64,000 nt of DNA from an uncultured Planctomycetales bacterium (GCA_964487475.1 CAZAPM010000003.1:62778-126777); one strand, 5' to 3'. Counted from the stretch's first letter, positions 9,531 to 61,036 are shown. Translations and numbers: made by a program. Notes: a model not told the origin generated them from the letters alone.

Positions 9531-9548
9531 CTTTTCTCAATAAGCCAA

Positions 9549-9591
9549 AAGCGCAAAGCATTGAATTTTCCTTGTGGCGTGCTTTGCGCTT
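9549..9591 (-). terminator. Strong hairpin (11-bp perfect stem aagcgcaaagc/gctttgcgctt, 21-nt loop) between the GH57 gene and uppS
   Basis: Perfect inverted repeat. On the minus strand it is followed by a U-rich stretch (CUUUUGGCUUAUU). Likely an intrinsic terminator or attenuator. Confidence 0.4.
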
Positions 9592-9608
9592 GCAGCCGGT
9601 TCCAGCTC

Positions 9609-18003: not shown

Positions 18004-18004
18004 C

Positions 18005-42098: not shown

Positions 42099-42140
42099 CG
42101 GCCTGCCGCGGAGCGCTTTTTTAATTTTTAGCATATGCCA

Positions 42141-42169
42141 ATAATATCCGTAAAGAAGGAAATTGTCAA
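42141..42169 (-). promoter_or_regulatory. Near-consensus sigma-70 promoter TTGACA -17 nt- TATTAT driving the DUF134-led operon
   Basis: The minus-strand sequence is TTGACAatttccttctttacggaTATTAT. The -35 overlaps the DUF1667 stop. Confidence 0.55.
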
Positions 42170-42537: not shown

Positions 42538-43511
42538 GGCGCTCTCCCCAGGAACGCCGCGGCCTGCCTGCCCGCCTCGAGGCTGTCCCGCGTCACCCAA
42601 TCCACCAGGTCATACACCTTATACGCGTTGCCGCAGGCAAACACCCCCGGAAGGGAGGTGGCATTCAACCCCTCTCCCCGGGGAGTATTGGTCTTAGGGT
42701 CGATCTCCGCGCCCGCCATCTCCAGGAGCTCGTTCTCCGGTATCAGCCCTACGGAGACCAGCAGCGTATCGCAGGTCAGCATGAACCCGCTGTCCGCGAC
42801 CTCATTCCATTGCTCATCCACCCGCACCACTTCCACCCCTTCCACCCTGTCCCGGCCTTTTATGCAGCGCACCTTATGGCTCAGATATATAGGTATATCG
42901 TAATCCTCCAGGCACTGCGCGACATTACGGGCAAGCCCGCTGGGTTTCGGCTGGATCTCGATCACCCCGTGCACTTTGGCCCCTTCCAGGGAAAAACGGC
43001 GCGCCATGATCAGGCCGATATCCCCGCTTCCCACGATCACCACTTCCCTACCGGGAAGCAATCCTTCGATATTGATCAGTTTCTGCGCCAGCCCTGCCGA
43101 GAACACCCCTGCGGGCCGGGTGCCCGGGATGTGCACCATCTCGCGGGTGCGCTCGCGGCACCCTGTAGCGATGATCAGCGCTTTAGCCCGGACCTCGCAA
43201 AGCTCTCCGGGCTTCAGGTACGTCAGCACCCTCTCCCGGGAAAGCCTGACCACGAAGGAACGCAGGCTTACCTCGACACCCGGCAGCGCCGCGGTCCTCT
43301 CGATGAAACGCTGCGCGTACTCCGGCCCGGTCAGCACTTCCTGAAAATGATTAAGCCCGAACCCGGTATGGATGCACTGGTTGAGGATCCCCCCCAGGAA
43401 CTGGTCCCGCTCGAGGATAAGGATATCTTTGACCCCGGCCTCGTGCGCAGCCAGCGCCGCGGCCATACCGGCAGGCCCTCCCCCCACGATCACCAGCTCC
43501 CTCTCAACCAT
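42534..43511 (-). CDS. NAD(P)/FAD-dependent oxidoreductase (pyridine nucleotide-disulfide family)
   Basis: 325 aa with two Rossmann GxGxxG motifs (VIVGGGPAG, VVIVGSGDIG). Confidence 0.8.
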   Translation of the reverse strand: MVERELVIVGGGPAGMAAALAAHEAGVKDILILERDQFLGGILNQCIHTGFGLNHFQEVLTGPEYAQRFIERTAALPGVEVSLRSFVVRLSRERVLTYLKPGELCEVRAKALIIATGCRERTREMVHIPGTRPAGVFSAGLAQKLINIEGLLPGREVVIVGSGDIGLIMARRFSLEGAKVHGVIEIQPKPSGLARNVAQCLEDYDIPIYLSHKVRCIKGRDRVEGVEVVRVDEQWNEVADSGFMLTCDTLLVSVGLIPENELLEMAGAEIDPKTNTPRGEGLNATSLPGVFACGNAYKVYDLVDWVTRDSLEAGRQAAAFLGRAP

Positions 43512-46439: not shown

Positions 46440-47281
46440 GCCGGCGCCTCCTTCACTCCGTGCTGGAGCATCCACTGGTACATATCCGCGAACACCTTCT
46501 CCCTTTCTTCGTCGATGGAAAGGGCGTGGCGCATCCCGGGATACTCCTTGAGCGCCTTATCTTCGAACGCGATGCCCCGGAACACCCGGCGGCTGGCCTC
46601 GTTATCCACCATCTGGTCCATTCCCGCCAGCTGGAAGAACACGGGGATACGCAGGAACTGCGCGTCCAGCCACGCCCGGCGCTGTATCCTCAAAGTATTC
46701 CACAAGAACGCCGCGGTGACCGTGCGTACCTCGCGCGGGTCATGGTCGAGCAGGGACTGGTACGCTTTGTCCCGCGTGCAAAGGGCGGAGGAAAACGGCA
46801 CTCTGAAGCGCATCCTCCTGCGCAGCGCCCAGGCCAGAGAAAACGCCGCGCGCTGCCCCACGGTAAAGGAAAGCGTGCTTTTGAACGCCGGAGAAAGGCA
46901 GATCACGCCTTGGAACGCCGGACCCTCGACGGAAGCGAAATGGAAGGCCAGCAGCGCGCCGAAACTCTCCCCGATCAGGAAAAGCGGCGCTCCGGGATGC
47001 GCCTCTTCGGCCAGTTCGATCAGCGCGCTTATCTCGCGGTAATACCGGCGAAAGGACTCCACATGCCCTTTATCCTTCTTATGCTCTCCGAAACCGGGAA
47101 GCTCCAGAGCATAAGAAACGACCCCCTTTTCCTTAAGATAGCTTGCGCACGCCTCCCACCTCTGGCTGTGCCCCCCCAGACCGTGGACCAGACAGGTTAT
47201 CCCCCGGCATGCTGACCCTTGAGGAAGCAGCCATGCCCGGTACAACATGCCTTGACGCTCCAGGAGGGAACTCGGCATCAT
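46436..47281 (-). CDS. Alpha/beta hydrolase (lysophospholipase/monoacylglycerol-lipase-like)
   Basis: HGLGGH oxyanion motif and GESFG nucleophile elbow. The start at MMPSS is supported by an ATGA overlap with the rSAM gene stop. Confidence 0.75.
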   Translation of the reverse strand: MMPSSLLERQGMLYRAWLLPQGSACRGITCLVHGLGGHSQRWEACASYLKEKGVVSYALELPGFGEHKKDKGHVESFRRYYREISALIELAEEAHPGAPLFLIGESFGALLAFHFASVEGPAFQGVICLSPAFKSTLSFTVGQRAAFSLAWALRRRMRFRVPFSSALCTRDKAYQSLLDHDPREVRTVTAAFLWNTLRIQRRAWLDAQFLRIPVFFQLAGMDQMVDNEASRRVFRGIAFEDKALKEYPGMRHALSIDEEREKVFADMYQWMLQHGVKEAPA

Positions 47282-48837
47282 TTCGCACCTTTCCCCGCGC
47301 GTACGCGCGCGCTGAGCTCCTTTGGCAGGAACCATATCCTCTTGAGCGCCGCAAACAAAGCCCTTCCCCTGCCGCGCAGCAGCCACATCCATATCCTGGC
47401 CGCGCACTCCACTCCGGCATTCATCAGCGGCCCCATTTCCTTATCACACCAACGGTACAGCCGCAGGCACGAAGGCCGCAGCAGTACCCTAGGGACATAT
47501 CCCGCCAGATGCCTGGTCATGCGGCTCTGGGCGCAAAGGATCAGCAGATGCAAAAACTTATGCGCCAGAGGCTCATGGATCAGGATGGACAAACTGGTCG
47601 CCATCGGAGAATGGTCGACCCGGTACTGCAGAGGCCACCCCTGCTCCGTTGCCCGCCGGAACATCGCCGTTCCGGGATAGAATGCCAGGCTGTTATGGAA
47701 CACGTGCACTCCCTGCGGAAGGTCCCGGATGAATCGCAGCGTCTCCAAAAGGTCCTCCCTCCCCTCATACGGGTTCATCCCGATGATATCATAACAGGCG
47801 GTGACCGAAGGGTACTCGCGCAGCGCCCAAACCACGCCGCGCACCTTCTCCATCGGGACCTTACGGTCGTACACCTCGAAGTTCGTCCTTTCGCTGGCGC
47901 TTTGCACCCCCATCACCACGTAACGCACTCCGGCGTCCCGCAACGCGTCCATCTTATCCCGCGCAAAGGTCAGCGGGGAGATGAGGATATAGAAGGGTGT
48001 GCCGATCTCGGCGCGGTACCGCGCGGAAAAATCGCGGATCTCCTCCAGCGGCTTGGCGAAAAACGTATCGTCCCCGATCCAGAACCTCTCGATCGAAGGG
48101 AACCGCGCCTTCGCCTCACGCAGATGCGCGATGAGATATTCGTTACGGTAATGACGCACACCGCGCCGGTGCGGGAACTCCCGCTTAAGCGCGTCATTCG
48201 AGCAGTACGCGCAGGCATGCGGACAGCCGCGGGAACCGAGCACGGTGAAGGCCTCGATCATCACATCGGGATATTCCGGCCGCATCAATGCCAGGCCGTT
48301 GCCCTTGCGGATATACTGGCGGGAAAGATCATAGTCGGGAAAAGGGTATTCGTTCAGGTCTTTGGCCAGGGGCTGACAGGGGTTCTGCACGACTTCACCT
48401 GCCCGCAGATAGCACCATCCCGCCACTCCCTCGCCGGGCACAGAGGAATCCAGCCTGTGCACGAACCCGGGCAGCGCATCCTCTCCCTCCCCCCGGCAGG
48501 CGGCATCGAAGTGGCGCAACACCTCCTCCGGCGCAAACGTGGCGTGCATGCCTCCGGCGACCATCGGTACGCGGAGATGACGGGCCAGCGCTTCCCGCGC
48601 GCGCACCGCGGAGGAGAACCCGTGCGTCATGAAGGAAAACCCTATCAGCGCGGATTCGGCGCACACTTCGGCCAGCTCCTCCCAGCGGAAATCACGCAAA
48701 CCGGTGCGGCCGGGATCGGGAAGGAACACCAGGGTCACCTCGCACCCCTGCTCCCGAAGACAGGAGGAAAGCACCCGGATCCCCAGCCCCGTGACCCCGT
48801 CATCGGTCGTGATCAGCACGATCTTGCGCCCGCTCAT
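47278..48837 (-). CDS. B12-binding-domain radical SAM enzyme (class B)
   Basis: 519 aa with an N-terminal cobalamin-binding Rossmann domain and the radical SAM CPHACAYC (CxxxCxxC) cluster motif. Confidence 0.85.
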   Translation of the reverse strand: MSGRKIVLITTDDGVTGLGIRVLSSCLREQGCEVTLVFLPDPGRTGLRDFRWEELAEVCAESALIGFSFMTHGFSSAVRAREALARHLRVPMVAGGMHATFAPEEVLRHFDAACRGEGEDALPGFVHRLDSSVPGEGVAGWCYLRAGEVVQNPCQPLAKDLNEYPFPDYDLSRQYIRKGNGLALMRPEYPDVMIEAFTVLGSRGCPHACAYCSNDALKREFPHRRGVRHYRNEYLIAHLREAKARFPSIERFWIGDDTFFAKPLEEIRDFSARYRAEIGTPFYILISPLTFARDKMDALRDAGVRYVVMGVQSASERTNFEVYDRKVPMEKVRGVVWALREYPSVTACYDIIGMNPYEGREDLLETLRFIRDLPQGVHVFHNSLAFYPGTAMFRRATEQGWPLQYRVDHSPMATSLSILIHEPLAHKFLHLLILCAQSRMTRHLAGYVPRVLLRPSCLRLYRWCDKEMGPLMNAGVECAARIWMWLLRGRGRALFAALKRIWFLPKELSARVRAGKGAK

Positions 48838-48838
48838 C

Positions 48839-49531
48839 CTAAGTGCCCGCCGGCAGGCCCAGCACCGGCGCTCCGCTTCTATAACGGTATGTCCCGAACA
48901 TCCTATCCCAAAAAGAGAACACGCTGCCGTAATTCGAATCTGTCTCCGCGCGTACCGTCGAATGGTGCAGATGGTGCATGGCCGGGGAGACCACCAGGGC
49001 GCGCAGCAGCGCGTCCGATCCTGACGGCAGCACTACCCGGCTGTGATGAAAGAAGATCACCGGCTGGAACAGCGCAAAATACGCCACCAGCGCCGGCCAG
49101 GAGACCCCGGAAACCGCGCACACTCCCAGGTGCAAAACCGCCGAGATCGCGATCTCCAGAGGATGGAAACGCAGGGCCGTGGTCACGTCCATCTCCGCGT
49201 CCCGGTGATGCATCCGGTGCAGCCGCCAGAGCCAGGACACACGATGGTTCGCCCGGTGCCACCAGTACATCCAGAGATCCAGGAGCACACACGCAACCAG
49301 GAACTTCACCCGGGGATCCCCCGTCCACCGGGCCAGGACCCCCGGCTGCGCGAACGCCTGAGGGAACAGCGCATACACGGAAAAAGTGATCGCGCCACCC
49401 GCCGCCGCGACCGCAAGATTGGCCGCCGTGTGCCGCCCCCACTTCGGCCAAGGACGCTGCGGCAGTATCATCCTGTCGGCGCCCAACAAAAGGCAGAATA
49501 TCACACCCGGCCAAGGAGAAAGCTCACTCAT
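48839..49531 (-). CDS. Fatty-acid hydroxylase/sterol-desaturase-family membrane di-iron enzyme
   Basis: His boxes HRANH, HRMHH and HHLHH are present. The start is uncertain. Confidence 0.7.
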   Translation of the reverse strand: MSELSPWPGVIFCLLLGADRMILPQRPWPKWGRHTAANLAVAAAGGAITFSVYALFPQAFAQPGVLARWTGDPRVKFLVACVLLDLWMYWWHRANHRVSWLWRLHRMHHRDAEMDVTTALRFHPLEIAISAVLHLGVCAVSGVSWPALVAYFALFQPVIFFHHSRVVLPSGSDALLRALVVSPAMHHLHHSTVRAETDSNYGSVFSFWDRMFGTYRYRSGAPVLGLPAGT

Positions 49532-50282
49532 TAAGCGTCCAGTCGTATTTCGTGTACCGCACCCTCCACGGCGGCCCAGGATCGCGCAACGCATCCGCCG
49601 CTTCCTCCGGAGCGTAGCGGGAGATGAATTTCAACAGCTCCTCGGTAGAGCCTCCGAAATCCGACCTGAACCAGGCAAAGACCGGGGAAATAGAGGCGAT
49701 CCTCCTCCCCGCATCGAATGAGTTCTTATGCGCCTGGGCCAGGAACCGCTTCCCCTGGTCTTCCAGCTGCGCATCGAGGATATCGCCCTCGTACGCCTCG
49801 CTGCGCAAAGGAGGACAGCCCTTGGCCGCGCACACGAGCGCGAAGTGGATGCGGGCGTCGCGGAAACGGGGCCGCATGATCTTATGTTCGATGAAAGAAA
49901 GAGAAGTGGTGCGGCCGTTGACCGTGACCAGGGGCTTATCCCATACCGTACGCCTGACGACCATGCCCAAAGCCAGACCTCCGGTATGCAATTCGTTGAT
50001 ACTGCGGAGGGGATAATGGTCGCAGATGATCTTGATGGTCCAGGCATTATATACGTTGATCCAGAAGGCGAGCTTTTCCTTATCCGTGCCCAGCGTCTCC
50101 GGGTCGATGCGGGCCGCTTCGGCGAGGTAACGGCGGAACCGCCCGTCGCGGCACACGCTTGGGTAATCCACCGCACCGTCACGGACATGCTCCTGCAATA
50201 CCGCGGTAAAAAGACCGTGCCGCGGCTGAGCCAAGGCACATACCGGCCACAACAGGACCGCTGCCGCGGCCGCGCGTATCAT
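49524..50282 (-). CDS. DUF547-domain protein, secreted
   Basis: Signal peptide MIRAAAAAVLLWPVCALA and a DUF547-like core (..FWINVYNA..). The start at M25 is supported by an ATGA overlap with the GT2 stop. Confidence 0.65.
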   Translation of the reverse strand: MIRAAAAAVLLWPVCALAQPRHGLFTAVLQEHVRDGAVDYPSVCRDGRFRRYLAEAARIDPETLGTDKEKLAFWINVYNAWTIKIICDHYPLRSINELHTGGLALGMVVRRTVWDKPLVTVNGRTTSLSFIEHKIMRPRFRDARIHFALVCAAKGCPPLRSEAYEGDILDAQLEDQGKRFLAQAHKNSFDAGRRIASISPVFAWFRSDFGGSTEELLKFISRYAPEEAADALRDPGPPWRVRYTKYDWTLNE

Positions 50283-50968
50283 TTTTCCGGACATGTATAC
50301 CTCCTGGCGAGCATTTCCGGTGATACCCCGCAGAGATACTGCAGGATAAGCCATCCGTTGCGCAGCTGCTGCCTGAACACCCCCCGCTGCACGAACTTAC
50401 GGCCGGAAGTGACCACTTCCCAGGGAAAGGAAACGATCCTGGTCCGACGGCGGGCACGGCGCAGCAGTTCCACATCCTCGAACAGGGGCCATTCCGGGAA
50501 TCCCCCCAGGGAAGAAAAAAAAGTCCGCCGCACTACGATGACCTGATCGCCGAAACGGGTCCACAAAGAATCGAACCGCGTGAAGAACCCGCACCATCGC
50601 AGGAACCAGTGATCGACGTCAAAACGCAGCCTGAAGGTTCCTATCTGCAGGCCGGGAGAAGACAGCGCGCGGGAAAGGAATGCGCCGGTGCCCGGAGGCA
50701 GCACCGTATCGGCATGCAGGAAGATCAGCCACTCCTCTTCGGCGCCCTGTGCCCCGGCATTACACTGTCGCCCCCTTCCCGCGGCAACAGACTTCACCTC
50801 TGCGCCTGCCTTTCGCGCCAACTCGACGGTCGCATCACTGCTTCCGCCGTCAGCCACCACCACCCGGGCGCAAGGAGCTTCGGCGCGCACCTGCGCCACG
50901 CATCCGGCAATGCGCGATCCTTCCTCCAACGCCGGGATCACGAACAACCAATCCCTACCCTCGCCCAT
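50279..50968 (-). CDS. Family-2 glycosyltransferase (small soluble GT-A; TIGR04283-like)
   Basis: 229 aa GT-A fold with an acidic motif (VVVADGGSSD..) and an ..LHADTVLP.. region. It co-occurs with a DUF2064 gene and a rSAM gene. Confidence 0.75.
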   Translation of the reverse strand: MGEGRDWLFVIPALEEGSRIAGCVAQVRAEAPCARVVVADGGSSDATVELARKAGAEVKSVAAGRGRQCNAGAQGAEEEWLIFLHADTVLPPGTGAFLSRALSSPGLQIGTFRLRFDVDHWFLRWCGFFTRFDSLWTRFGDQVIVVRRTFFSSLGGFPEWPLFEDVELLRRARRRTRIVSFPWEVVTSGRKFVQRGVFRQQLRNGWLILQYLCGVSPEMLARRYTCPEK

Positions 50969-50974
50969 TATATC

Positions 50975-51003
50975 ATTATAACAAAGAGTTATTGCTTGAG
51001 CAA
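50975..51003 (-). promoter_or_regulatory. Sigma-70 promoter TTGCTC -17 nt- (TGt)TATAAT positioned for a leaderless or near-leaderless GT2 transcript
   Basis: The minus-strand sequence is TTGCTCaagcaataactctttgtTATAATgaTATAATGggcgag. The ATG at 50968 lies ~7 nt after the first -10 hexamer. Confidence 0.45.
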
Positions 51004-51030
51004 CGTAAGTCTAGGGAGTACAATACGTTC

Positions 51031-51837
51031 ATGAGATCGCTCCTTCTTCTCTCCCTTTTCCTCGCGCTTCACCCCGGCAACGCAACGGCCCAGGAAACCT
51101 GCCCCGCCCACTACCTTTCCGAAGGGGAAGCGGTGTACGTCGAAAAAGGCTCCGGCCGGCAGCGTTCCCGGACGCATTTCACTTTCTCCCGGGAGAATGC
51201 GGAAGGACGCATCCGTTATACCCTTGACCGGTATGGAGAGGGCTCTTTCGGCCGCTTCGACAACGTGCACTGGCATGCGCACGCGCAACTGGAAGAGCGC
51301 GAAGGGTTCCTCTCCCCCTTGCGCACCGAGATCACCATAAGGGACAGGAACAACGCCCTGGTATCCAGATACGAGAAAGAGTTCGATTACGCCGCACAAG
51401 AGATCCGCTGGATCGGATACGGCCCGCAGGGTTCGGCCGTCAAAAAGGCCTCCTTTCCGCTGAAAGGCCGGACCGCCGATGACATCACCCTCCCTCATTT
51501 CCTGAAACCATATGCCGCGCGTGCAGGCGACCCGCAGTACGCGTCATTCTACCTGATCACCAACGAACCGAGACTGTACAAAACCGACATCACGCCTCTC
51601 GGTACCGCCACCCTCTCCCTCCCTTTCGGGGATATCCCGGCGGTCAAGCTCAAGCTCACCGGGGACATGGGGATCATGGATGAAATACTGGACCGGTACG
51701 TACCCGCGACGTACCTGTGGTACGAAGCCGGCACGGACCACGACTGGCTGCAGTACGAAGGATTCGAGACCGGCTTCGGGTCAACCGGAGTGGTCGCCCG
51801 CCTGACCCGGCAGAAGAAAAAGTGCCTTACCCCCTGA
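51031..51837 (+). CDS. Secreted hypothetical protein
   Basis: 268 aa with signal peptide MRSLLLLSLFLALHPGNATAQE. The long upstream extension of ORF 50680 is antisense shadow. Confidence 0.6.
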   Translation: MRSLLLLSLFLALHPGNATAQETCPAHYLSEGEAVYVEKGSGRQRSRTHFTFSRENAEGRIRYTLDRYGEGSFGRFDNVHWHAHAQLEEREGFLSPLRTEITIRDRNNALVSRYEKEFDYAAQEIRWIGYGPQGSAVKKASFPLKGRTADDITLPHFLKPYAARAGDPQYASFYLITNEPRLYKTDITPLGTATLSLPFGDIPAVKLKLTGDMGIMDEILDRYVPATYLWYEAGTDHDWLQYEGFETGFGSTGVVARLTRQKKKCLTP

Positions 51838-52141
51838 GCGCGGCGGCGATCTCATCCGCCAGTTTCTTCCTGTCAAAAAGCGGATGGGCATGGCTGAACT
51901 GGTAGAACTTCTTCCCGTTGACCATGATGATCGGAGGATGCCATGCGCCCCGGAATAAACAATACCAGATATTATCCAGCCAGGGCCTGACCTCGAAGGT
52001 CACCGGCTGTCCCGGATATCCTTCTTTGATCATCTTCTGGAGTACCGAAGTAGTCAGATCGCACTCATTGCATCGGGAGCGGATCCGGAAGATCCCCCAC
52101 TTTCCCGCCCACTTATACTGCGTGACGGTTACGCTCGCCAT
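51827..52141 (-). CDS. Small CxxC protein, hypothetical (thioredoxin-fold-like candidate)
   Basis: 104 aa with a CNEC motif near the N-terminus (..RSRCNECDLT..) and a second Cys pair later. Confidence 0.5.
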   Translation of the reverse strand: MASVTVTQYKWAGKWGIFRIRSRCNECDLTTSVLQKMIKEGYPGQPVTFEVRPWLDNIWYCLFRGAWHPPIIMVNGKKFYQFSHAHPLFDRKKLADEIAAALRG

Positions 52142-52793
52142 ATAACTGCCTCCTGGTATGCATTGCCCGTCCCGTTCCGGATGACCGGACCAGCCTGCGC
52201 TTCAGGCGCTTAAGCGACTGCGGATCATCCACGTCATCCCATAACGGGAGCATCCTCACCCTTAACCCCAGCCCGGCGGCATTATCCCTGATCCGCTGCG
52301 CCACGGAAGAGGTGCTCCAGACGATCCCCCGGAAGAGACGCAGCGGAAGATCATACCCCGCAACGAGGTAAAACCCGCCGTCGCGGCAGGGACCGAGCAC
52401 CACCTCTCCCTCACGCACCAAGGATACGGCTTTCTGCAAATACCGTTTCGGCAAATCCGGCGCATCGGACCCGATCACCAGCGCCCCCGCCTTCTTCCGC
52501 GCCGCCCAGACGAACGCATGACGCAGCCGCTGCCCTAACGCAGCGCCCCTCTGCGGAAAACACTCCCAGCTTTTAGCCCAGGCGCGCAGCATCCTGGGAT
52601 CTCCCGCTTCCGGCGCGTATGCCAGCGCGTGCATCCCCCGGGACACTTTGCGCACCAGTGCGACCGTATCCCGGAAAAATGAAGCGTATAACCTCGCGGC
52701 ATACGCGTCGCGCGCTCCGGCAGGAAAAAGCCTGGTCTTGACCTTACCCGGCACCGGCTCCTTCGCGAACACGATCACATACGACGAAGACAT
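52113..52793 (-). CDS. DUF2064-family protein (TIGR04282-like, nucleotidyltransferase/GT-like fold)
   Basis: The start at MSSSYVIVFAKEP matches the family N-terminus. Later motifs ..GSDAPDLP.. and ..GPCRDGGFYLVA.. are present. Confidence 0.75.
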   Translation of the reverse strand: MSSSYVIVFAKEPVPGKVKTRLFPAGARDAYAARLYASFFRDTVALVRKVSRGMHALAYAPEAGDPRMLRAWAKSWECFPQRGAALGQRLRHAFVWAARKKAGALVIGSDAPDLPKRYLQKAVSLVREGEVVLGPCRDGGFYLVAGYDLPLRLFRGIVWSTSSVAQRIRDNAAGLGLRVRMLPLWDDVDDPQSLKRLKRRLVRSSGTGRAMHTRRQLYGERNRHAV

Positions 52794-52794
52794 A

Positions 52795-54135
52795 TCAACC
52801 GGCCTGCCGGATCCGCTCCAGATACGCCTGCATATCGTATTTCCTTTCCAGCCCCGCCGCATTCATGTAACGGACCTTTCCGAACACGGGCCGCGTAGGC
52901 CAGGCCCGGTCATGCATCCCGAAACACCAGGCGATCCCCGCATACCCGTTCGGGTCGCGGCCGTCCAGCTCATACTTGTCGTTAAGGTACACCAGCGCCG
53001 AGAACGCCTCTTCTGCGGTGCGGGACCACTCCAGCACCTTTTTCCCCCAATACATGCGCATATACCCGTGCATCAATCCCGAACGCATCATCTGCTGCTG
53101 ACAGGCGTTCCAGTACGGATCATGCGTATGCGCTTCTTCCAGCTGGGATAAAGAATACACGTACGGCCTCGGGTCGCGCGCATGCTCCTCCAGCGTATTG
53201 GCCGCCCACTCCGGCAGGCAGGCCAAAGAATCATACCGGGGAGTGTACAGGCAGAAATTATCGGAGAGCTCCTTGCGCACGATGAGCTCCTCCAGAAAAG
53301 CCTCCTTGGCCGCGCGGGGCACTAACGCCTTCTGCACGGCCAATGCCACCCTCTGGGAAGCGATGTGCCCGAAATGCAGGTACGGGGAAAGTCCGGAGGT
53401 AGCTTGCAGCGCGGGATCGTTCTTGCGGAGAGGATAATAACGCAGCTGGGTCCTGATAAAATACCTGAGCGCGTGCGCGGCAGCGGCTTCGCCGGGGACC
53501 GGCCCGGGATCGGGTGCGGCGCGCACTGCGGCGCCAGCCTTCTCCCACGGCACCGAGTCACAGGAGCACTCCCCGGTATACGGATGGATGATCAGGCCGG
53601 GAAAGGAGGTAAGGAACTCCGCCAGCCTCTTATGCAGCTTCGGACGCAGCGTATACGCCCCGTACTCCGCCTTTGGAGAGACTTCCTGGCAGGGAACGAC
53701 ATTGTGCGCATCCACCTCATAACACGGCAGACGCACCCTGGAGACCACCTTCTCCTGCCACTGGCGCTTGATGCGCAAAGGGTCGAAATCCATCACCAGC
53801 GCGCCGGCGCCAAGCTGCGAGAGGGCCGCCGGGACTTCCCGCGCCGGGTCCCCGCAGCGCAGGAAGAATCCGATCCTGTGCGCACGGAGGGTCGCTGCGG
53901 TCTCCTGCATACCCCGGAGGAGAAAGTCGAAATGCCTCGCCTGGGCGTGCAGGAACTCCGGCACCAGGCAAAAGACCACGCACAGCGGCGCCTGGGTCTC
54001 CAGGGCCAGTTCCTGCGCGTACAGCAGCGCCCAGTTGTCGTGCGCCCTCTGGTCGCGGCTCATCCAGTACACCACCGCTCCCGGGGTGCGCTGCCCTATC
54101 CTGCGCTGACGGATACGTGAAGGGTGTACCGGCAT
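52795..54135 (-). CDS. Deoxyribodipyrimidine photolyase, class II
   Basis: 446 aa with the class II N-terminus (..GAVVYWMSRDQRAHDNWAL..) and an FAD-binding C-domain. Confidence 0.85.
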   Translation of the reverse strand: MPVHPSRIRQRRIGQRTPGAVVYWMSRDQRAHDNWALLYAQELALETQAPLCVVFCLVPEFLHAQARHFDFLLRGMQETAATLRAHRIGFFLRCGDPAREVPAALSQLGAGALVMDFDPLRIKRQWQEKVVSRVRLPCYEVDAHNVVPCQEVSPKAEYGAYTLRPKLHKRLAEFLTSFPGLIIHPYTGECSCDSVPWEKAGAAVRAAPDPGPVPGEAAAAHALRYFIRTQLRYYPLRKNDPALQATSGLSPYLHFGHIASQRVALAVQKALVPRAAKEAFLEELIVRKELSDNFCLYTPRYDSLACLPEWAANTLEEHARDPRPYVYSLSQLEEAHTHDPYWNACQQQMMRSGLMHGYMRMYWGKKVLEWSRTAEEAFSALVYLNDKYELDGRDPNGYAGIAWCFGMHDRAWPTRPVFGKVRYMNAAGLERKYDMQAYLERIRQAG

Positions 54136-54144: not shown

Positions 54145-54903
54145 TTACACACCCAGCGTAGGGATATACTCCCGCAGGGCGCGGATTCGATCGTCCACGA
54201 AGGGGTGGGTGCGCAGGTATTGCATCACCCGGATATTCGGCCCTTCCCCTTTTTTCAGTTTCTCCAGCGCCGAGAAGGCAGCCTGGGGAGGATACCCCGC
54301 GCGATGCGCATACTTTGTCCCCAGGCGGTCGGCTTCGAACTCATCCCCCCGGCTGTAACTTAACTCCATCAGGCCGTACACGGCGGAGGCACCCGTGAGC
54401 GCGCCCTGGGCTTTCTCCGACTTGTTTCCCAGCGCGGCGAAGGCCACCGCCAGCAGCGACTGATACGCCATGTTCGCCTGCATCTTCTTGGCGATGTGGC
54501 GCGCGGCCACATGACCGATCTCATGGCCCATGACGTACGCCAACTCATCGTCGGAGAACGCTTCCATCAGCCCCCGGTTGACGTACACGTATCCTCCGGG
54601 CAGCGTCACGGCATTGAGGGATTTATCCTCGATCACGCCGAAGGTATAGGCGATATCCTTGCGGTCGGAGTGCGCCGCCAGTTTCATCCCTATCCTTTGC
54701 GCCCGCTCCTGAAGCCGCGCATCCTTGGAAAGCGGGTACTTCTTGGTCATCTCCGGGAGCACCTCCCGGCCGATGGCCGACTCGGTGGCGCTGTTGATGA
54801 AGATGAACTCTTTCCTGCCGGTCGCGGGATTGTACAGCGTGGCGCATCCCGAAAGGAACACGCATACCGCCAGAACCGCAGCGAAACGGGCGCGTCCTAC
54901 CAT
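54145..54903 (-). CDS. M48-family Zn-metalloprotease lipoprotein
   Basis: Lipobox (..FLSGC) and an HEIGH (HExxH) motif with a downstream Glu. Confidence 0.85.
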   Translation of the reverse strand: MVGRARFAAVLAVCVFLSGCATLYNPATGRKEFIFINSATESAIGREVLPEMTKKYPLSKDARLQERAQRIGMKLAAHSDRKDIAYTFGVIEDKSLNAVTLPGGYVYVNRGLMEAFSDDELAYVMGHEIGHVAARHIAKKMQANMAYQSLLAVAFAALGNKSEKAQGALTGASAVYGLMELSYSRGDEFEADRLGTKYAHRAGYPPQAAFSALEKLKKGEGPNIRVMQYLRTHPFVDDRIRALREYIPTLGV

Positions 54904-55247
54904 ACCAACTGGATGATGGTATCGTCCGCGACCATGAAGATATTGAGCGCGAACATGGCCTCCCCTTTCTTCACGGACACGTTATAGGTATTCTCGCCTT
55001 TGCCGCCCAGCACGGTATACCCCTGATCCTTGAAGAACTGCTCGTAGAAAGCGACCACCTTATCGAACTGCGCCCGCACCGAATAGTTCACCACCCGGGA
55101 ATTCTCTCCCGCGCCGGTCCCGGACTTGAACTTCGCTGCTCCCGCGTACAACGGCACTCCTGCCGCACCGATCACCACTTCTTCCGCGCAGGCCTGGCCT
55201 GCCAGACATACTACCGCGACCGCAACCGCCAATGCTGCCTTCCTCAT
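54897..55247 (-). CDS. Small secreted protein (116 aa), ATGA-coupled to the upstream P-type-ATPase-like gene
   Basis: Signal peptide MRKAALAVAVAVVCLAGQACA. The start is supported by an ATGA overlap at 55244-55247. Confidence 0.55.
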   Translation of the reverse strand: MRKAALAVAVAVVCLAGQACAEEVVIGAAGVPLYAGAAKFKSGTGAGENSRVVNYSVRAQFDKVVAFYEQFFKDQGYTVLGGKGENTYNVSVKKGEAMFALNIFMVADDTIIQLVW

Positions 55248-57277
55248 CTCCCTGCCTCCCGTATACGCAAGGTTCTCGCCTCTGGCGTAAGGCCCAACGC
55301 CGCCGCCAGCACTCCTATGCTCAAAAGATTGGTCCATGTCAATTGCCAAGGGGAAACCGGCACCTGCCAGGCGAATACCGCGGCAGCGCACAACCCCAGC
55401 GCTTCCGCCAGGAACACGCCCATCAGGAGAAACGCCGCGCGCCTGGACCGCAGGCACAGGGTCCGGCTTTGGAGAAGCACGGATACCACGGCCGCAAAAC
55501 TCTCGTCGGGAAGCACGATATCCGCCGCTTCCTTCGCCAGCTCCGCGCAATTCCTTCCCGCCGCAATACCCACCTCGGCCCTCTCCAGGGCCAGCGCGTC
55601 ATTGACACCGTCCCCGGTGACCGCCACGACATGCCCCTTGCGCTGCAGGGCTTCCACGATACGCACCTTGCGCAGCGGCTCCAGCCGGGCACAGGCCCCG
55701 ATCCGGTCGATCGCCTCCCACAACGATTCGTCATTGAGCTGCATCAGCTCGTTTCCCGTACACGCCTTTGCCGGGACCAGCCCCAACCGTTCCGCCAGCA
55801 CCGTCGCCGTCCATTTACTGTCCCCGGTGGTCATCAGGACGCGGATACCCGCCTGCCGGCACTGCGCCAGCGCAGGCAATGTATCCGGGCGGACAGGATT
55901 GTCCATTGCCGCCAGACCTGCCAGGACCGCCTTTCCCTTCAGGTTCTCCTTCTTAAGCGTGCCGAACTCGACCGGATACTCCACGTATGCGAACGCCAGC
56001 ACCCGCATCGCCTCCTGCGCCATCAGCGTGTACGCGCAGGCTATCTCCTGACGCCTGGCCTCATTCAGCTCCACTACCCCCTCGGGCATCTGCACGAACG
56101 CGCAGAAGGAAAGCACCTTTTCCACCGAACCTTTCAGGTACGCGACACGCATGCTCCCCTGACGGTGCAACGTGGCCATGTACTGCTTTTCGCTCTGGAA
56201 CGGTATCTCCCCCAGGCGGGGAAAGGTATCCTCCAGTTTCTCCTTGCTCAATCCCGCCTTGGCCGCCGCCACCACCAGCGCTCCCTCGGTAGGATCCCCC
56301 GCGATCGCGGTATCCCCGTTGGCCGCCATCAGCAGCGCGTCATTGCATAACGCGGCGATACGCAGCGCGCTGATCAGGGGCAGTTCATGACGGATATCCG
56401 CCGGCTGGCCGTCGATGCAAAACTCGCCCTTGGTCTCGAATCCCGTGCCGCTGACCTCGAAGGACCTTCCGCCGGCGAACATGCGTTTTACCGTCATCCG
56501 GTTCGAGGTAAAGACGCCTGTCTTGTCCGCGCAGATGACGGAAACCGCGGCCATTTTCTCCGCGGTCGAAGGCAGGCGCCGCAGCCATACCAACATCGCC
56601 GGCAGCACCACCGCCGCAGCGCCGGCCATCGTACCGGAAAGATTGGCACCCCGCAGCGCCCCCGAGACGACCGCCAACGCACCGGATGCCGCGATCAGGA
56701 TCATGATCGCGTTTCCCGTTTGGCTGCAGCGTTTCCCCGGAGGTAAACGCTTCGCCTTCGATCTTACGATCGAGCCGGCGATGCGTCCAAGCTCCGTATG
56801 CATCCCGGTAGCCGTGACCACCGCCGTCGCCCTGCCCGAGGAAACCGTAGTCCCCATGAACACCATATTCATCCGCTCGAAAAGCGCTGCCTCGGGAGAG
56901 ATCTTCTCCGTGCGCTTTTCCACGGGCATGGTCTCGCCGGTAAAGGAAGACTCGTCTATCTTGAGGTTGGAAACTTCCAGCAGCCTGGCGTCCGCCGGGA
57001 CCTTATCTCGGGGCTCGAGCAGAAGGACGTCCCCGGGGACAAGGTCCCGGGAACCGCACTGCATCACCCTTCCCTGACGACGGACCTTCGCCCTGGAGGT
57101 GATCAAGCCGGAAAGGAACTCCCCGTTATATATCCACCTGCGGCGCAAAAGCAGATTGTACCCGTACTCCCTCCTGCGGCGCAACGCCTCATCGTGACTC
57201 AAACCTTCCTTGCGGGAATCCAAGGCCAGAAGCGTTTCCTCAAGGGAGATGGAAAAATAAGAATCCTTATTGCTCAT
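55244..57277 (-). CDS. P-type-ATPase homologue with a reduced membrane domain (TM3-TM6 only) and degenerate ion-site/phosphorylation-loop motifs
   Basis: 677 aa. Recognisable parts are the Cation_ATPase_N (..YGYNLL..), the A-domain (TGET for TGES), DKTGVFTSN (for DKTGTLTQN), the N-domain, MTTGDSKWTA and VTGDGVNDALAL. The TM1-2 segment is replaced by ~20 aa, PEGL is absent from TM4, and the protein ends after TM6. Confidence 0.7.
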   Translation of the reverse strand: MSNKDSYFSISLEETLLALDSRKEGLSHDEALRRRREYGYNLLLRRRWIYNGEFLSGLITSRAKVRRQGRVMQCGSRDLVPGDVLLLEPRDKVPADARLLEVSNLKIDESSFTGETMPVEKRTEKISPEAALFERMNMVFMGTTVSSGRATAVVTATGMHTELGRIAGSIVRSKAKRLPPGKRCSQTGNAIMILIAASGALAVVSGALRGANLSGTMAGAAAVVLPAMLVWLRRLPSTAEKMAAVSVICADKTGVFTSNRMTVKRMFAGGRSFEVSGTGFETKGEFCIDGQPADIRHELPLISALRIAALCNDALLMAANGDTAIAGDPTEGALVVAAAKAGLSKEKLEDTFPRLGEIPFQSEKQYMATLHRQGSMRVAYLKGSVEKVLSFCAFVQMPEGVVELNEARRQEIACAYTLMAQEAMRVLAFAYVEYPVEFGTLKKENLKGKAVLAGLAAMDNPVRPDTLPALAQCRQAGIRVLMTTGDSKWTATVLAERLGLVPAKACTGNELMQLNDESLWEAIDRIGACARLEPLRKVRIVEALQRKGHVVAVTGDGVNDALALERAEVGIAAGRNCAELAKEAADIVLPDESFAAVVSVLLQSRTLCLRSRRAAFLLMGVFLAEALGLCAAAVFAWQVPVSPWQLTWTNLLSIGVLAAALGLTPEARTLRIREAGR

Positions 57278-57441
57278 TGTCCCTCAAAAAAAATCCCTGC
57301 GACTTCTCGTCAACAGGGTTATAACTTCATATCCGGTCCTCAAGTTCATACGCTCAATTTCCATAACTACTTCAATTATATTGAGTATCCTTCATCTGCG
57401 CAAGCATTATATTGCGGATAGGAAATCACACCGTTGAAGGA

Positions 57442-57470
57442 TGGTAATTCTACCAAATATGTGATATAAT
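57442..57470 (+). promoter_or_regulatory. Candidate promoter for the REC gene: TGGTAA -17 nt- (TGa)TATAAT with extended -10
   Basis: A consensus extended -10 (gTGaTATAAT) with a weak -35, ~75 nt upstream of ATG 57545 in the AT-rich spacer. Confidence 0.45.
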
Positions 57471-57544
57471 TATACTGTAAGGCATAATGCCTAACTGGTG
57501 TAAGTTGTAAAATTCAAGAACAAAAAAACGAGAAAGAAGTAATT

Positions 57545-58339
57545 ATGGACACCAATACTACATTGGTTGAAAAAAAATATAACATATTGGTAGTTGATGA
57601 TGAACCGGCTGTGGGCGGAGTCCTGACCGACTTCCTCACGCTAAAAGGCCTGGAGGTGCACAACGCAGCGAGCGGACAGCAGGCGCTGGATATCCTGCAG
57701 ACCGCCAGCTACGACCTCATTCTTCTCGACCTGATCATGCCGGGCCTAAACGGCGCAGAGGTCGCGCGCATCGTCCGGCAGAAATATCCCGAGACCAAGA
57801 TCGTCATCATCACCGCGTTCCCCAAAGAGATGGTAAAGCTCCAGGAAGGAGACAGCACCGACGCCCTGTTCATCAAGCCTTTCAAGCTGCACGATCTTTA
57901 CCGAAAACTCGAGGCCCTGCACGCACAAGGGACGCCCGCACAGGAGATCACCGAATCACAACTCCATACCAAGACCCTCTACATCAAGGCGGATATCATG
58001 CTGGTAGGCTGCCCCGCGGACGCCTGTTCCTTCTTCGAAAGGCAGCTCCAGGAGCTTTCCCTGCGCGGACAGTATTACGATGTGCGCTTTGCGCGGGACG
58101 AGAACGAGTTCATCACGCAATCCTGCTTCTGCGAGCCTGACATCGTGATAGTCGAGGAAGACCACTACCGCGCCCTCGACTCACGCACCATCGACCGGGT
58201 CTACCTCTCTTCCGCCAAGACCAAGGAGATACTCCCCTTCGACACTTCCGCTGCCCAGTTGGACTTTTCCCGGGCCGAGGAACTCATCGAAATGATACGC
58301 AGCGCCTGCATCAAACACGGGCTGGTACAGGTCGGCTAA
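57545..58339 (+). CDS. Single-domain response regulator (REC) with a C-terminal domain of unknown function
   Basis: 264 aa with a CheY-like receiver (ILVVDDEP..., phospho-Asp context LILLDLIMPG, ..IVIITAF..) plus a ~140-aa Cys-containing tail without a recognisable output domain. Confidence 0.8.
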   Translation: MDTNTTLVEKKYNILVVDDEPAVGGVLTDFLTLKGLEVHNAASGQQALDILQTASYDLILLDLIMPGLNGAEVARIVRQKYPETKIVIITAFPKEMVKLQEGDSTDALFIKPFKLHDLYRKLEALHAQGTPAQEITESQLHTKTLYIKADIMLVGCPADACSFFERQLQELSLRGQYYDVRFARDENEFITQSCFCEPDIVIVEEDHYRALDSRTIDRVYLSSAKTKEILPFDTSAAQLDFSRAEELIEMIRSACIKHGLVQVG

Positions 58340-59154
58340 CTTCCCTCTCCGTGATGCTCTCGGTGGCAGTGCGGATGCGCATGCAGCACGCCTTCGTGCC
58401 AATGGGCGTGCACATGCACCAGGTTATGCTCCCGCAGGAAGGGATCGTCCCGCAGCAGTTCGCAGGGGCCCGAGGTACGTACGATACTCCGGTCGCGGCC
58501 GAACACCCGCACCGAATCGCAGATCTCGGGCACGATGTGCAGGTCATGCGTCGCCGTGATCACCGTCCGCCCCTGCCGGCGCAACTCTCCGATCAACTCC
58601 ACGATCTGACGGCTGGTCTGCGGATCCAGCCCCGCGGTCGGCTCATCGAGCAGCAACACCTGCGGCTGGACCGCCAGCACCGCGGCGATCGCCACCTTCC
58701 GTTTCTCTCCGATGCTCAACTGATGCCCGGAACGATCCAAAAGGCCGCCGATCGAGAACCTCTCCGTCAACTCCTCCAGGCGCTTTCGCGCATCCGGCGC
58801 AGAGTACCCCAGCTGCAGCGGGCCGAAAAGGATATCCTCCCTTACCGTCGGGCAGAATAACTGCACGTCCGGAGTTTGGAACACGAACCCCACCCGGCGG
58901 CGGAACTCCCGCGCACACAGGGGGTCTTCCAGCATCCCCCTGGTCAGAGGCCGGGAGTCAAAACGCACCGCGCCCCGGTCCGGATAGGTCAGCCCGTCCA
59001 GCACCGACAGCAGGGTGGATTTTCCCGTACCGTTGGCGCCCAGAAGACAGACCGCCTCTCCCGCTTCGACGGTCATGGTGACCCCCGCAAGCGCCGGGAA
59101 CTTCCCGGCATAGGCAAAATATATGTCGTCTATCTCGAAAATACGCTCCGCCAT
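58336..59154 (-). CDS. cbiO: ECF-type cobalt/nickel transporter ATPase CbiO/NikO with His-rich C-terminal tail
   Basis: Walker A GANGTGKST, signature LSIGEKRK, Walker B LLLDEPTAGLD. The C-terminus is HVHAHWHEGVLHAHPHCHREHHGEGS. Confidence 0.85.
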   Translation of the reverse strand: MAERIFEIDDIYFAYAGKFPALAGVTMTVEAGEAVCLLGANGTGKSTLLSVLDGLTYPDRGAVRFDSRPLTRGMLEDPLCAREFRRRVGFVFQTPDVQLFCPTVREDILFGPLQLGYSAPDARKRLEELTERFSIGGLLDRSGHQLSIGEKRKVAIAAVLAVQPQVLLLDEPTAGLDPQTSRQIVELIGELRRQGRTVITATHDLHIVPEICDSVRVFGRDRSIVRTSGPCELLRDDPFLREHNLVHVHAHWHEGVLHAHPHCHREHHGEGS

Positions 59155-59155
59155 A

Positions 59156-60016
59156 TTACAGTCTCCCCGTTACCCCCAGCACTGAAACGACAGCGCATAA
59201 AAGCAGCATCGCCCCTGCCCACGCCCAATCCCCTCTCGACGGAGGCGGCTCGCCTTCGGTACGCGGCTCTCCGCTGTATCCTCTGGAGCGCATCGCCTGA
59301 TACACCTGCTCCTGCAGCTGCACGGAACGCTGCCAAAGGTGCGCGATCCCGGACCCCACGACCTCCCTGCCCGTACGCGCGGCCAGCCCCGCCCCGCAGC
59401 GGCTTTTGATCCCCAGGAAGACGTTCTGGACAAGCTCCACGAAAAAGAACAGGTAGCGGTGGCAAAGCATGGCGGTCTCGACGAACAGCGCCGGCACCGC
59501 GCAGACGCGCATCCCTTTGAGCAGCAAGGTGTGCGGGGTGGTAAGCACCAGCAGCACGGCCAGGGAAACGGATACCGTGACCCGGGAAAGCAGGCGCAGC
59601 GCGCTCATCGCGCCCTGCCTGGTTACCGCCGCCTCCCACGGCCCGACGGAAAATACGGCGATGCGCTCGCCCGGGGTCACCGCCTCGAACACCGCGGGTA
59701 TCGCCAGCAGGAGCGAAAAGAGGGGCACGAACACCCAGGTCCTTTTCAGGAAGAACCCGCAGGGGATGCGGGAAAGATACGCCAGCAGCAGGACCGACAC
59801 ATACATCCCCGCCAGGAAGGACACGGAACGGACGCACGCTGCCGCCGCCAGCATGCCGAAGACCACGAGCAGTTTGGCCCGGTAATCCCGGCGCTGCAGG
59901 AAACCCGGGACCTGCGCATATTCCTGGGATTCCAGGGATGCGCGCACGAACGACAAAGTGCCGGTCAACGACCTCTCGATGAACCTGTTCCTCGACCGGA
60001 CCAGTATCCTCTTCAT
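59156..60016 (-). CDS. cbiQ: ECF transporter transmembrane (T) component CbiQ
   Basis: CbiQ-like 5-6 TM protein. The start at MKRILV is supported by an ATGA overlap with the upstream gene. The overlapping ORF 59130-60305 in the other frame is rejected. Confidence 0.75.
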   Translation of the reverse strand: MKRILVRSRNRFIERSLTGTLSFVRASLESQEYAQVPGFLQRRDYRAKLLVVFGMLAAAACVRSVSFLAGMYVSVLLLAYLSRIPCGFFLKRTWVFVPLFSLLLAIPAVFEAVTPGERIAVFSVGPWEAAVTRQGAMSALRLLSRVTVSVSLAVLLVLTTPHTLLLKGMRVCAVPALFVETAMLCHRYLFFFVELVQNVFLGIKSRCGAGLAARTGREVVGSGIAHLWQRSVQLQEQVYQAMRSRGYSGEPRTEGEPPPSRGDWAWAGAMLLLCAVVSVLGVTGRL

Positions 60017-60354
60017 CTCTTCCTGCGAAGCAATTTTGCTGCCGCGTATGCCGCACCCGCGGTGACCGCGATACCCGCGACTGCGGAGAGCAGATACGCC
60101 AATCCCTGCGCGGGCAGCGCTTTTGCCTCCCATCCCGGAAAAGTATACTCCGGCAGAGGGGCGCTCCAAAGGGAAGAAAGCCTCTGCATTCCCCGCGGGA
60201 TATACCCGACCAGTCCGCCCACCTCCTGCGCACCCCACTCCCCCCATGCGGAACCCGCCTTGAAAAATTCCGGCAGGAAAAGACCCAAAGGCGAAAAGAG
60301 CGCAAGGATCCCGATCCCCAGCCACAGCTTACCGATGGTTTTCATGCGCACCAT
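60013..60354 (-). CDS. PDGLE-domain/CbiN-like small membrane component of the CbiMNQO system
   Basis: 113 aa with two TM helices flanking a ..AWGEWG..LPEYTFPGWE.. extracytoplasmic loop. It sits between cbiM and cbiQ. Confidence 0.6.
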   Translation of the reverse strand: MVRMKTIGKLWLGIGILALFSPLGLFLPEFFKAGSAWGEWGAQEVGGLVGYIPRGMQRLSSLWSAPLPEYTFPGWEAKALPAQGLAYLLSAVAGIAVTAGAAYAAAKLLRRKR

Positions 60355-61036
60355 TCCCGGGGACCGCCCGGGAAAGAAGCCCCGGGTCCTGTTTCTGAAG
60401 GTATTTGACCACCAGCGCGGTCACCGCAGCCTCAATCCATCCGAACACCAGGAGATGTTCGGCCAGCATCACGGTAAGCGCGGTCTTAAGACCGTAAGGC
60501 CCATAGAGCGCCTGTCCGTCTGCGGTATGGTGCAGGTACGGCTGGATGCCGAACTGCACGGCAGCGGACAATGCCGCCAGGTTCAATCCTATATACCCTG
60601 CGATCCCGGCTGCCCAGATCCGCCTGCGGGAAACAGGCGCGGAATTCCCGCCGAGAAAAACGTACGCGTAGTACCCGGCGAAGACCATCACCACGGCCAT
60701 GTTAAAGCAGTTCGCGCCCAGCGCCGTGATGCCCCCGTCGCCATAAAGCAGCGCCTGCACTGCCAGCGCCACGGTCACGGCGATACACGCCGCCCACGGC
60801 CCCAGCAGGATCGCGGCCAGCACCGCGCCCGCCGCATGCCCGGTAGTTCCACCGGGAATGGGGACGTTGAACATCATGATGACAAAAGAAAAAGCCGCTG
60901 CCACGCCCAGCAGCGGCACGCTCCGGGCATCGAGGTCCCGGCGCGCATTCCGCGACGCCAACGCCCACACCGGCAGCATGACGGAATACATCACTGCCCC
61001 GGTCGCCGGGCCTAAATACCCGTCAGGGATATGCAT
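60329..61036 (-). CDS. cbiM: Cobalt/nickel ECF transporter substrate-capture component CbiM
   Basis: Hallmark N-terminus MHIPDGYL. 235 aa, 7 TM. Confidence 0.9.
   Translation of the reverse strand: MHIPDGYLGPATGAVMYSVMLPVWALASRNARRDLDARSVPLLGVAAAFSFVIMMFNVPIPGGTTGHAAGAVLAAILLGPWAACIAVTVALAVQALLYGDGGITALGANCFNMAVVMVFAGYYAYVFLGGNSAPVSRRRIWAAGIAGYIGLNLAALSAAVQFGIQPYLHHTADGQALYGPYGLKTALTVMLAEHLLVFGWIEAAVTALVVKYLQKQDPGLLSRAVPGNGAHENHR

Follow-up and report, generated by a model that had tools for sequence, protein, structure and literature searches.

P-type ATPases bind their ions between transmembrane helices (TM) 4, 5 and 6, an event that triggers phosphorylation of the cytoplasmic head, and TM1 and TM2 relay the movement of the actuator (A) domain to the ion gates. 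In Ca2+ pumps of the type represented by Listeria LMCA1 (6zhh, 9euq) and the PMR1/SPCA pumps, this machinery takes up about 900 residues and ten helices, with a PEGL glutamate in TM4, an asparagine in TM5, an aspartate in TM6 and a DKTGT phosphorylation loop. Here we describe an open reading frame (ORF) of 677 codons in a 64,000-nucleotide stretch of DNA from an uncultured Planctomycetales bacterium (GCA_964487475.1 CAZAPM010000003.1:62778-126777; the whole stretch is called the window below), whose product shares with those pumps the A, phosphorylation (P) and nucleotide-binding (N) domains, the catalytic Asp, the TGE loop, and the TGD and GDGVND motifs, and differs from them in every one of the other features just named. 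We think it probable, though well short of certain, that this is a maintained protein that no longer pumps: a lineage-specific, transport-incompetent derivative of a ten-helix P2-type (LMCA1/PMR1-like) Ca2+-ATPase. Its anatomy, its domain-specific conservation, its standing as a singleton and the independence of the small secreted protein and M48 protease encoded beside it are established; its residual catalysis and any present-day role are what we infer from the sequence.

The ORF is one continuous frame on the minus strand. Its parts are given here with the evidence for each; invariants are positions at least 98% invariant in 82 full-length homologues, counted where the query retains them, and pLDDT is the predicted local distance difference test score of an AlphaFold2 model.

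55244..57277, minus strand: whole ORF, truncated P2-type ATPase (ORF listing, Pfam and NCBIfam matches, phmmer search of the PDB, AlphaFold2 model)
57143..57277, minus strand: residues 1-45, N-terminal A-domain segment, Cation_ATPase_N (PF00690 at 23.9 bits against a cutoff of 20.4; pLDDT about 90; 5/5 invariants)
57098..57142, minus strand: residues 46-60, non-hydrophobic linker replacing the TM1-TM2 hairpin (alignment gaps, no hydropathy peak, pLDDT below 50)
56762..57097, minus strand: residues 61-172, A domain with TGET at 113-116 (PF00122 at 1.4e-34; 26/30 invariants; pLDDT 80-91)
56549..56761, minus strand: residues 173-243, TM3 (about 188-208) and a shortened TM4' (213-231) (alignments; 5/24 invariants)
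56507..56527, minus strand: DKTGVFT phosphorylation loop, D251 being the predicted phospho-aspartate (read from the sequence)
55508..56548, minus strand: residues 244-590, P and N domains with KGSVE, NPVR, MTTGD, K537 and TGDGVNDALAL (PF13246, PF00702; pLDDT mostly 80-95)
55244..55507, minus strand: residues 591-677, S5 stalk, TM5 (616-634), TM6 (646-664) and a short tail (alignments; 14/29 invariants)

Membership of the superfamily is clear from profile searches. Pfam finds E1-E2_ATPase (PF00122, 1.4e-34), Cation_ATPase, which is the N domain (PF13246, 2.4e-19), Hydrolase (PF00702, 1e-12) and Cation_ATPase_N (PF00690, 3.2e-5), all beyond their cutoffs, and with TIGR01494, the model for P-type ATPases in general, the protein reaches 196.2 bits where 62.3 would suffice. 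More specific models fall short: the top NCBIfam match, TIGR01522 (PMR1-type Ca2+-ATPase), reaches 355.3 of the 798.3 bits needed at equivalog level, TIGR01116 reaches 332.5 of 703.4, the P1B heavy-metal models TIGR01525 and TIGR01511 reach 134.9 of 346 and 107 of 397, and the kdpB model 68 of 528. The best phmmer match in the PDB is LMCA1 (6zhh, E 2.4e-91), with SPCA1 at 1.8e-83, and the AlphaFold2 model matches SERCA E2 structures with a query-normalised TM-score of 0.76, its head at pLDDT 80-95 and its linker below 50. By these comparisons, which include the test against P2A and P1B ATPases proposed by the first-pass annotation of this DNA, the protein is clearly P2-derived and not of P1B or KdpB descent.

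Alignments with 8 and with 82 full-length homologues agree on four in-frame losses, every one of them in the membrane part. The first removes about 56 residues spanning TM1-2, in whose place stands a 15-residue linker (residues 46-60); the first-pass annotation had correctly seen that this hairpin is absent, putting the linker at about 20 residues where about 85 are expected. Against LMCA1 (6zhh), query residues 11-48 correspond to 8-45 and residue 61 to 118, and LMCA1 residues 46-117 are without counterpart. The second and third losses take 12 residues before TM4 and 9 after it, shortening the TM4 region by about 21, and the fourth takes about 215 residues past TM6, the whole of TM7-10, so that the protein does end after TM6, as had been annotated. 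Downstream of DKTG the query has 427 residues, compared with about 575-580 in all of the 80 genomic relatives other than contig-end fragments and two frameshift-interrupted loci (L050 and L051).

Nor is there any sign of the ten helices of a P2A Ca2+-ATPase by other means. Cation_ATPase_C (PF00689), the C-terminal membrane domain, has no match in the protein, and a Kyte-Doolittle profile, the kind of helix check that had been called for, gives exactly four candidate segments (190-208, 213-231, 616-634 and 646-664), in keeping with the gaps against the 82 homologues. The possibility of a split gene was rejected by tblastn with the TM1-2 and TM7-10 parts of five homologues, which matched only the ORF itself in the window and found no remnant of these helices in any frame of the 64 kb; together with the alignments, this settles the concern that they were present and had been missed. 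All losses are in frame, each helix loss is an even number, and there are no frameshifts. The frame is thus intact, as first annotated, with coding-type periodicity of GC content throughout and four identical assemblies.

Most of the ion site has gone with the helices. PEGLP is absent and with it the TM4 glutamate; the TM5 asparagine has become phenylalanine, and in TM6 NLVTD has become NLLSI, which replaces the aspartate by isoleucine and the threonine by serine. Of the P2A ion ligands only the TM5 glutamate and the TM6 asparagine are retained. The TM4 and TM6 losses had already been noted; the TM5 substitution, the surviving TM5 glutamate, the shorter TM4 region and, in the head, (D)NPVR in place of DPPR are additions to that picture.

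The cytoplasmic head presents the opposite case, and the earlier description of its modules and motifs is borne out by Pfam and the alignments, from the N-terminal domain through TGET (113-116) and DKTGVFT (D251-K-T-G254) to TGDGVNDALAL (554-564), in which P562L is the sole change. MTTGD (482-486), K537 and the ATP-binding residues F360, K382 and R425 are likewise present. The phosphorylation loop departs from PROSITE PS00154, which we take to be D-K-T-G-T-[LIVM]-[TI], in that DKTGVFT fails the full signature; T255V and L256F both fall at positions invariant in the 82 homologues. Valine directly after DKTG is common in other haloacid dehalogenase (HAD) enzymes.

This division between head and membrane is quantitative. 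Retained invariants are compared below with those of full-length pumps from Omnitrophota and Spirochaetota.

N-terminus: query 5/5; comparison pumps 5/5 where the N-terminus was recovered
A domain: query 26/30; comparison pumps 27-30/30
N domain: query 43/45; comparison pumps 40-45/45
P domain, first half: query 12/16; comparison pumps 10-16/16
P domain, second half: query 39/53; comparison pumps 48-53/53
TM3-4: query 5/24; comparison pumps 22-24/24
S5-TM5-6: query 14/29; comparison pumps 27-29/29

Head and membrane invariants differ by Fisher test at p = 7e-11, and the N domain differs from residues 601-677 (12/23 retained) at p = 4.5e-5. Identity to the reference set tells the same story: for real pumps from other phyla it is 55-63% over the head and 64-73% over the TM part, the TM3-6 core being the best conserved, whereas the query stands at 52% and 29%. 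The collapse is thus confined to the part that is ordinarily conserved best. Hydropathy is nevertheless canonical (TM4 1.68 against 1.69, TM5 2.20 against 2.17), and TM5 has 1 polar residue where the mean is 4.8. Fourteen of the 60 lost invariant positions lie within residues 569-614, the segment leading into the S5 stalk, a cluster that fits a loss of coupling between head and membrane. GC content at codon positions 1, 2 and 3 is 0.62/0.48/0.77 over the ORF and resembles that of the neighbouring genes in every segment. Compensated frameshifts as the source of the TM divergence were rejected, because TM queries matched only the ORF's own frame; recent horizontal transfer was rejected on a third-position GC content equal to that of the neighbours and a best identity of merely 46%. 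What ion binding and head-to-membrane coupling require has degenerated, what ATP binding, phosphoryl transfer and dephosphorylation require is retained, and the helices persist as hydrophobic anchors. On sequence grounds, this contrast between domains speaks against neutral decay spread evenly over the gene and in favour of a selected head on a membrane anchor.

The architecture appears to stand alone. A search of 5.8e9 proteins returned the query at 100% and then nothing above 46% identity, the next matches being full-length proteins of about 900 residues, mostly from Dehalococcoidia; a look-up of the exact protein gave no record of it as a full gene, and its context was traced by way of the small protein and M48. 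None of 80 related loci from GTDB species genomes has the truncated form; where ORFs among them are shorter, they are cut off at a contig end or interrupted by a frameshift. Residues 150-275 were also run in an exhaustive HMMER scan of 1.84e9 representative proteins, which scored the query at 245 bits and the next match at 62, with no relative of the derived TM3-4 segment among those representatives; nearly all matches over the full span take in about 21 residues more than the query does, a surplus that corresponds to the canonical TM4 region. Two matches with query-like spacing (P0190 and P0182) were set aside, as both are fragments that still carry PEGL or PEAL. The lineage is sparsely sampled, the M48 protein of the nearest relative being only 67% identical.

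One further candidate for the same truncation, L050 from a Dehalococcoidales metagenome-assembled genome (MAG), was also rejected. Its Ca2+-ATPase (7980-10702) is split by a frameshift just after TM6, with TM7-10 encoded at 10154-10702 in another frame; whether this reflects faulty assembly or a young pseudogene, the split imitates the query's C-terminal truncation.

How such a protein arose and what it may do can be outlined. In-frame deletions took whole hairpins (TM1-2 and TM7-10) and shortened TM4, while by substitution most of the ion ligands (TM4 Glu, TM5 Asn, TM6 Asp) were lost and the stalk linking the ion site to the phosphorylation domain deteriorated. The A/P/N head is left complete, held by a hydrophobic anchor of four helices, and both termini are predicted to be cytoplasmic. 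The head probably still binds ATP, phosphorylates D251 and dephosphorylates through the TGET loop, in catalytic steps that would no longer be gated by or coupled to ion binding. Such a protein might act as a membrane-tethered uncoupled ATPase, futile or regulatory, or as a phospho-switch. That selection has kept a P2-type head for exactly this purpose, as a non-transporting, ATP-driven phospho-switch tethered to the membrane by four helices, is a possible extension of our reading that we offer tentatively.

Several points weigh against a maintained non-pump. There is no orthologue of the truncated architecture, so conservation across species cannot be demonstrated; the search for orthologues with the same truncation, which the first-pass annotation had suggested, came back empty from all three collections described above. 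Head invariants have changed as well (DKTGT to DKTGV, L256F, DPPR to NPVR, D460N, P562L, and GTDV to NCAE), in part perhaps to the detriment of catalysis. With 9 residues gone from the link between TM4 and the P domain, the geometry of the phosphorylation site could also be distorted, and the two kinds of change together may reduce or abolish turnover. The structure prediction, which that annotation had also proposed, is confident and SERCA E2-like for the head, while the membrane part is modelled at a pLDDT of only 37-60. Finally, the retained head residues could in part reflect a long history as a pump followed by a recent loss of function, an account that the depth of the TM divergence argues against.

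These doubts lead to the strongest rival, a non-functional relic: a former Ca2+ pump whose ORF is intact, useless and awaiting decay. Much that has been described would be expected of one, including a singleton with no shared architecture in 5.8e9 or 1.84e9 proteins, the missing transport residues, the alteration of otherwise invariant head residues (D460N, T255V, P562L) and a C-terminus that ends in the next gene's Shine-Dalgarno sequence, as after a simple 3' deletion; moreover, high-GC DNA keeps long ORFs open by chance, and off-frame ORFs of 372 residues occur at this locus. Uniform decay, however, would affect head and membrane alike, and the N domain keeps 43/45 invariants where TM3-4 keeps 5/24 (p = 7e-11 for head against membrane). 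It also sits poorly with a TM part that has fallen to 29% identity with its hydrophobicity fully kept, with internal deletions that are all in frame and take whole hairpins, and with codon-position GC content like that of the neighbours in every segment. We therefore regard a relic as unlikely, though it is far from negligible. The first-pass annotation had suggested a repurposed pump rather than a decayed one, and had held that full-length orthologues would speak for recent decay. The relatives found are indeed full-length, but at 46% identity or less they are not close, and the conservation pattern argues against recent decay; repurposing is supported by that pattern, and is not proven.

The same annotation had linked the ATPase to its downstream neighbours, and here the surroundings of the gene are needed.

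57278..57544, no strand: A+T-rich 267-nucleotide intergenic region, common to the ATPase and a divergent response-regulator gene
54897..55247, minus strand: 116-residue secreted protein, signal peptide and beta-alpha-beta4 domain (ATGA overlap with the ATPase ORF)
54145..54903, minus strand: M48 metalloprotease lipoprotein with LSGC lipobox and HEIGH motif (PF01435 at 7.5e-36)

Translation of the ATPase is preceded by a GAGGGA Shine-Dalgarno sequence 4 nucleotides upstream of its ATG. Its stop codon overlaps the start of the 116-codon ORF as ATGA, and 7 nucleotides are common to the end of that ORF and the M48 gene. A scan for promoters and terminators was uninformative, with counts equal to shuffle expectation; a weak sigma-70-like match in the intergenic region (57511-57484, minus strand) likewise does not exceed it. 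The last ATPase codons (I-R-E-A-G-R-stop, 55244-55262, minus strand) double as the small gene's GGGAGG ribosome-binding site and ATG. Because the ATPase C-terminus is encoded by its neighbour's Shine-Dalgarno sequence, the ATGA overlap looks like the by-product of a 3' deletion and not like evolved coupling. The sequence suggests a C-terminal truncation by deletion reaching the next gene's translation signals, and most likely it was this 3'-end deletion that brought the ATPase frame against the small gene's ribosome-binding site. The junction itself is as first described; the evolved coupling read into it is the less likely interpretation.

The small gene and the M48 gene form a pair in their own right. 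With an identical 7-nucleotide overlap it occurs in four other loci, two of them unannotated metagenome contigs (L086, L087) and two NCBI Omnitrophota MAGs (L111, L112). Coordinates of the pair and identity of the M48 protein to that of the window are as follows.

Window: 54145-55247, minus strand
L086: 1991-3114; M48 65% identical
L087: 5591-6732; M48 52% identical
L111: 9651-10801; M48 67% identical
L112: 9549-10759; M48 60% identical

The small-protein homologues are 27-36% identical and 116-152 residues long, carry a signal peptide and a C-terminus ending in ...[FLV]-[IV]-W, and lie directly upstream of M48. Upstream of the pair in the four loci are genes for an HD-GYP protein, a methyltransferase-like ORF, an ArsP permease and, on the other strand, ribosomal protein L28; a P-type ATPase is upstream in none of the four (0/4), and no small-protein homologue occurs at any of the 80 related ATPase loci. 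Since the pair recurs with varied upstream genes and in none of these loci with an ATPase, the small protein belongs with M48. Nearly all named relatives of the M48 protein come from Candidatus Omnitrophota, which assigns the window, and with it the ATPase, to that phylum; the BepA and LoiP models score below their cutoffs for the M48 protein. A single-sequence AlphaFold2 model of the small protein has a pLDDT of 76-92 for residues 50-116; searches of the PDB and of protein families gave no significant structural neighbour and no usable match, and a precomputed label (PF27226 AF_1845) was not reproducible with local Pfam. The recurrence of a small secreted protein overlapped with an M48 lipoprotein in Omnitrophota and related contigs suggests a two-component periplasmic protease module.

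A single system of ATPase, coupled 116-residue periplasmic protein and M48 protease was the arrangement put forward in the first-pass annotation, and it has the ATGA and 7-nucleotide overlaps, the common strand and the lack of any terminator-like site between the genes to recommend it. The occurrence of the pair in four loci with four different upstream genes and without the ATPase, together with the 0/80 ATPase loci that have a small-protein homologue, removes most of this appeal. In addition, hydropathy topology predicts that the periplasmic loops of the ATPase are only about 5 and about 9 residues long, so that a partner in the periplasm would have little to hold on to, and the rest of the operon is mixed (photolyase, DUF2064, GT2, DUF547). 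Cooperation among the three proteins is thus unsupported and seems very improbable.

A pump in another guise, with the four helices acting as an oligomer or with a separate membrane subunit as KdpB does with KdpA, fares no better, and we give it very little credence. In its favour, every P-type ion site is built around TM4-6, an end soon after TM6 is shared with P1B-ATPases and KdpB, and the TM5 glutamate and TM6 asparagine survive here. Such a pump would nonetheless have to work without TM1-2, which tie A-domain movement to gating of the ion path, without the PEGL glutamate, TM5 asparagine and TM6 aspartate, and with a link between TM4 and the P domain that is 9 residues shorter. The operon holds no candidate membrane subunit, and the 64 kb no remnant of TM1-2 or TM7-10.

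Five separately assembled contigs match the locus (JGI 3300076594, 3300076265 and 3300076298; Logan SRR12447102 and SRR12447082), and four of them are 100% identical to the window. The other (L084) is 99.88% identical, with 5 mismatches, and reaches no more than the last 13 nucleotides of the ATPase ORF. In L081 the ATPase is present from residue 20 onward, so that both the TM1-2 junction and the C-terminal end are spanned. As assemblies from different samples agree across the junctions, the truncation is not an assembly artefact. A chimeric contig, collapsed region or gene-calling error, which the origin of the window in a MAG and the frameshifted ATPase of L050 might bring to mind, can be set aside in view of the four independent assemblies that are identical across the junctions and a continuous ORF with coding-type GC periodicity throughout.

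Other features of the window deserve brief mention. The orphan response regulator divergent to the ATPase (57545-58339, plus strand) has a receiver domain at residues 14-122, followed by about 140 residues without a family match. Just upstream of the ATPase region and on its strand lies a cobalt-type energy-coupling factor (ECF) transporter cluster (58336-61036, minus strand) that encodes CbiM, a PDGLE-domain protein, CbiQ and an ABC ATPase; if the CbiQ ORF is taken from the first possible start codon, about 140 residues at its N-terminus precede the Pfam match, and its true start probably lies further downstream. Two ORFs have no Pfam match, one of 624 residues (16216-18090, minus strand) and one of 266 residues with a signal-peptide-like hydrophobic N-terminus (51037-51837, plus strand); the latter and the response regulator are the sole plus-strand genes recognised in the stretch examined from 50 to 62 kb. 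Downstream of the photolyase, at 38917-52862 on the minus strand, runs a series of genes that takes in several with a link to lipids or the envelope: DUF2064, a GT2 glycosyltransferase, DUF547, a fatty-acid hydroxylase, a B12-binding radical SAM enzyme, an alpha/beta hydrolase and an MMPL/sterol-sensing-domain transporter. Between them lie genes for two FAD oxidoreductases and an FGGY-family sugar kinase. The genes with a lipid connection may together make up a lipid-modification cluster. Throughout the 64 kb each 2-kb bin shows negative GC skew, and most recognised genes are on the minus strand, which is consistent with a single replichore and strong gene co-orientation.

If the head does serve as a selected phospho-switch, it would be a natural experiment in which E1P/E2P chemistry is kept and put to another use without an ion site. 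A conserved head without TM1-2, TM7-10 and ion ligands would reveal what the head does alone, and would offer structural biology a compact construct; should a role exist, this would be a rare bacterial case in which a pump has become an enzyme or switch that does not transport. Its importance is limited by its being a single gene in one uncultured lineage, without conserved partners. To our knowledge no natural P-type ATPase lacking TM1-2 has been reported before, and such a switch would be the first. The architecture is not described in the part of the literature on truncated, TM1-less or soluble P-type ATPases that we covered, which is weak evidence of novelty.

Known systems supply precedents for parts of this picture. 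Among natural P-type ATPases, P1B pumps and KdpB lack the TM7-10 support domain, P1B pumps ending shortly after TM6 and KdpB having one further helix (TM7), so that a C-terminal stop after TM6 has a precedent in the superfamily, and KdpB illustrates that a P-type head can serve another subunit. Both nevertheless keep TM1-2 and intact ion ligands such as the CPC motif, and P1B pumps add helices MA and MB. For a role in signalling or regulation rather than simple pumping, a precedent is the P4-ATPase-like domain fused to apicomplexan guanylyl cyclases, for example Plasmodium falciparum GC-alpha (PMC7858053). That apicomplexan domain differs from the query in being eukaryotic, ten-helix and cyclase-fused, and the two have no sequence relation beyond the superfamily. 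A second functional analogue, likewise no relative, is provided by the SERCA-derived SERCA1 splice variants of mammals (S1T), in which a portion of the membrane domain is missing and Ca2+ pumping is lost. S1T is a product of splicing that lacks the C-terminal half and much of the head and keeps TM1-4, so that the parts retained there are roughly the reverse of those retained in the query.

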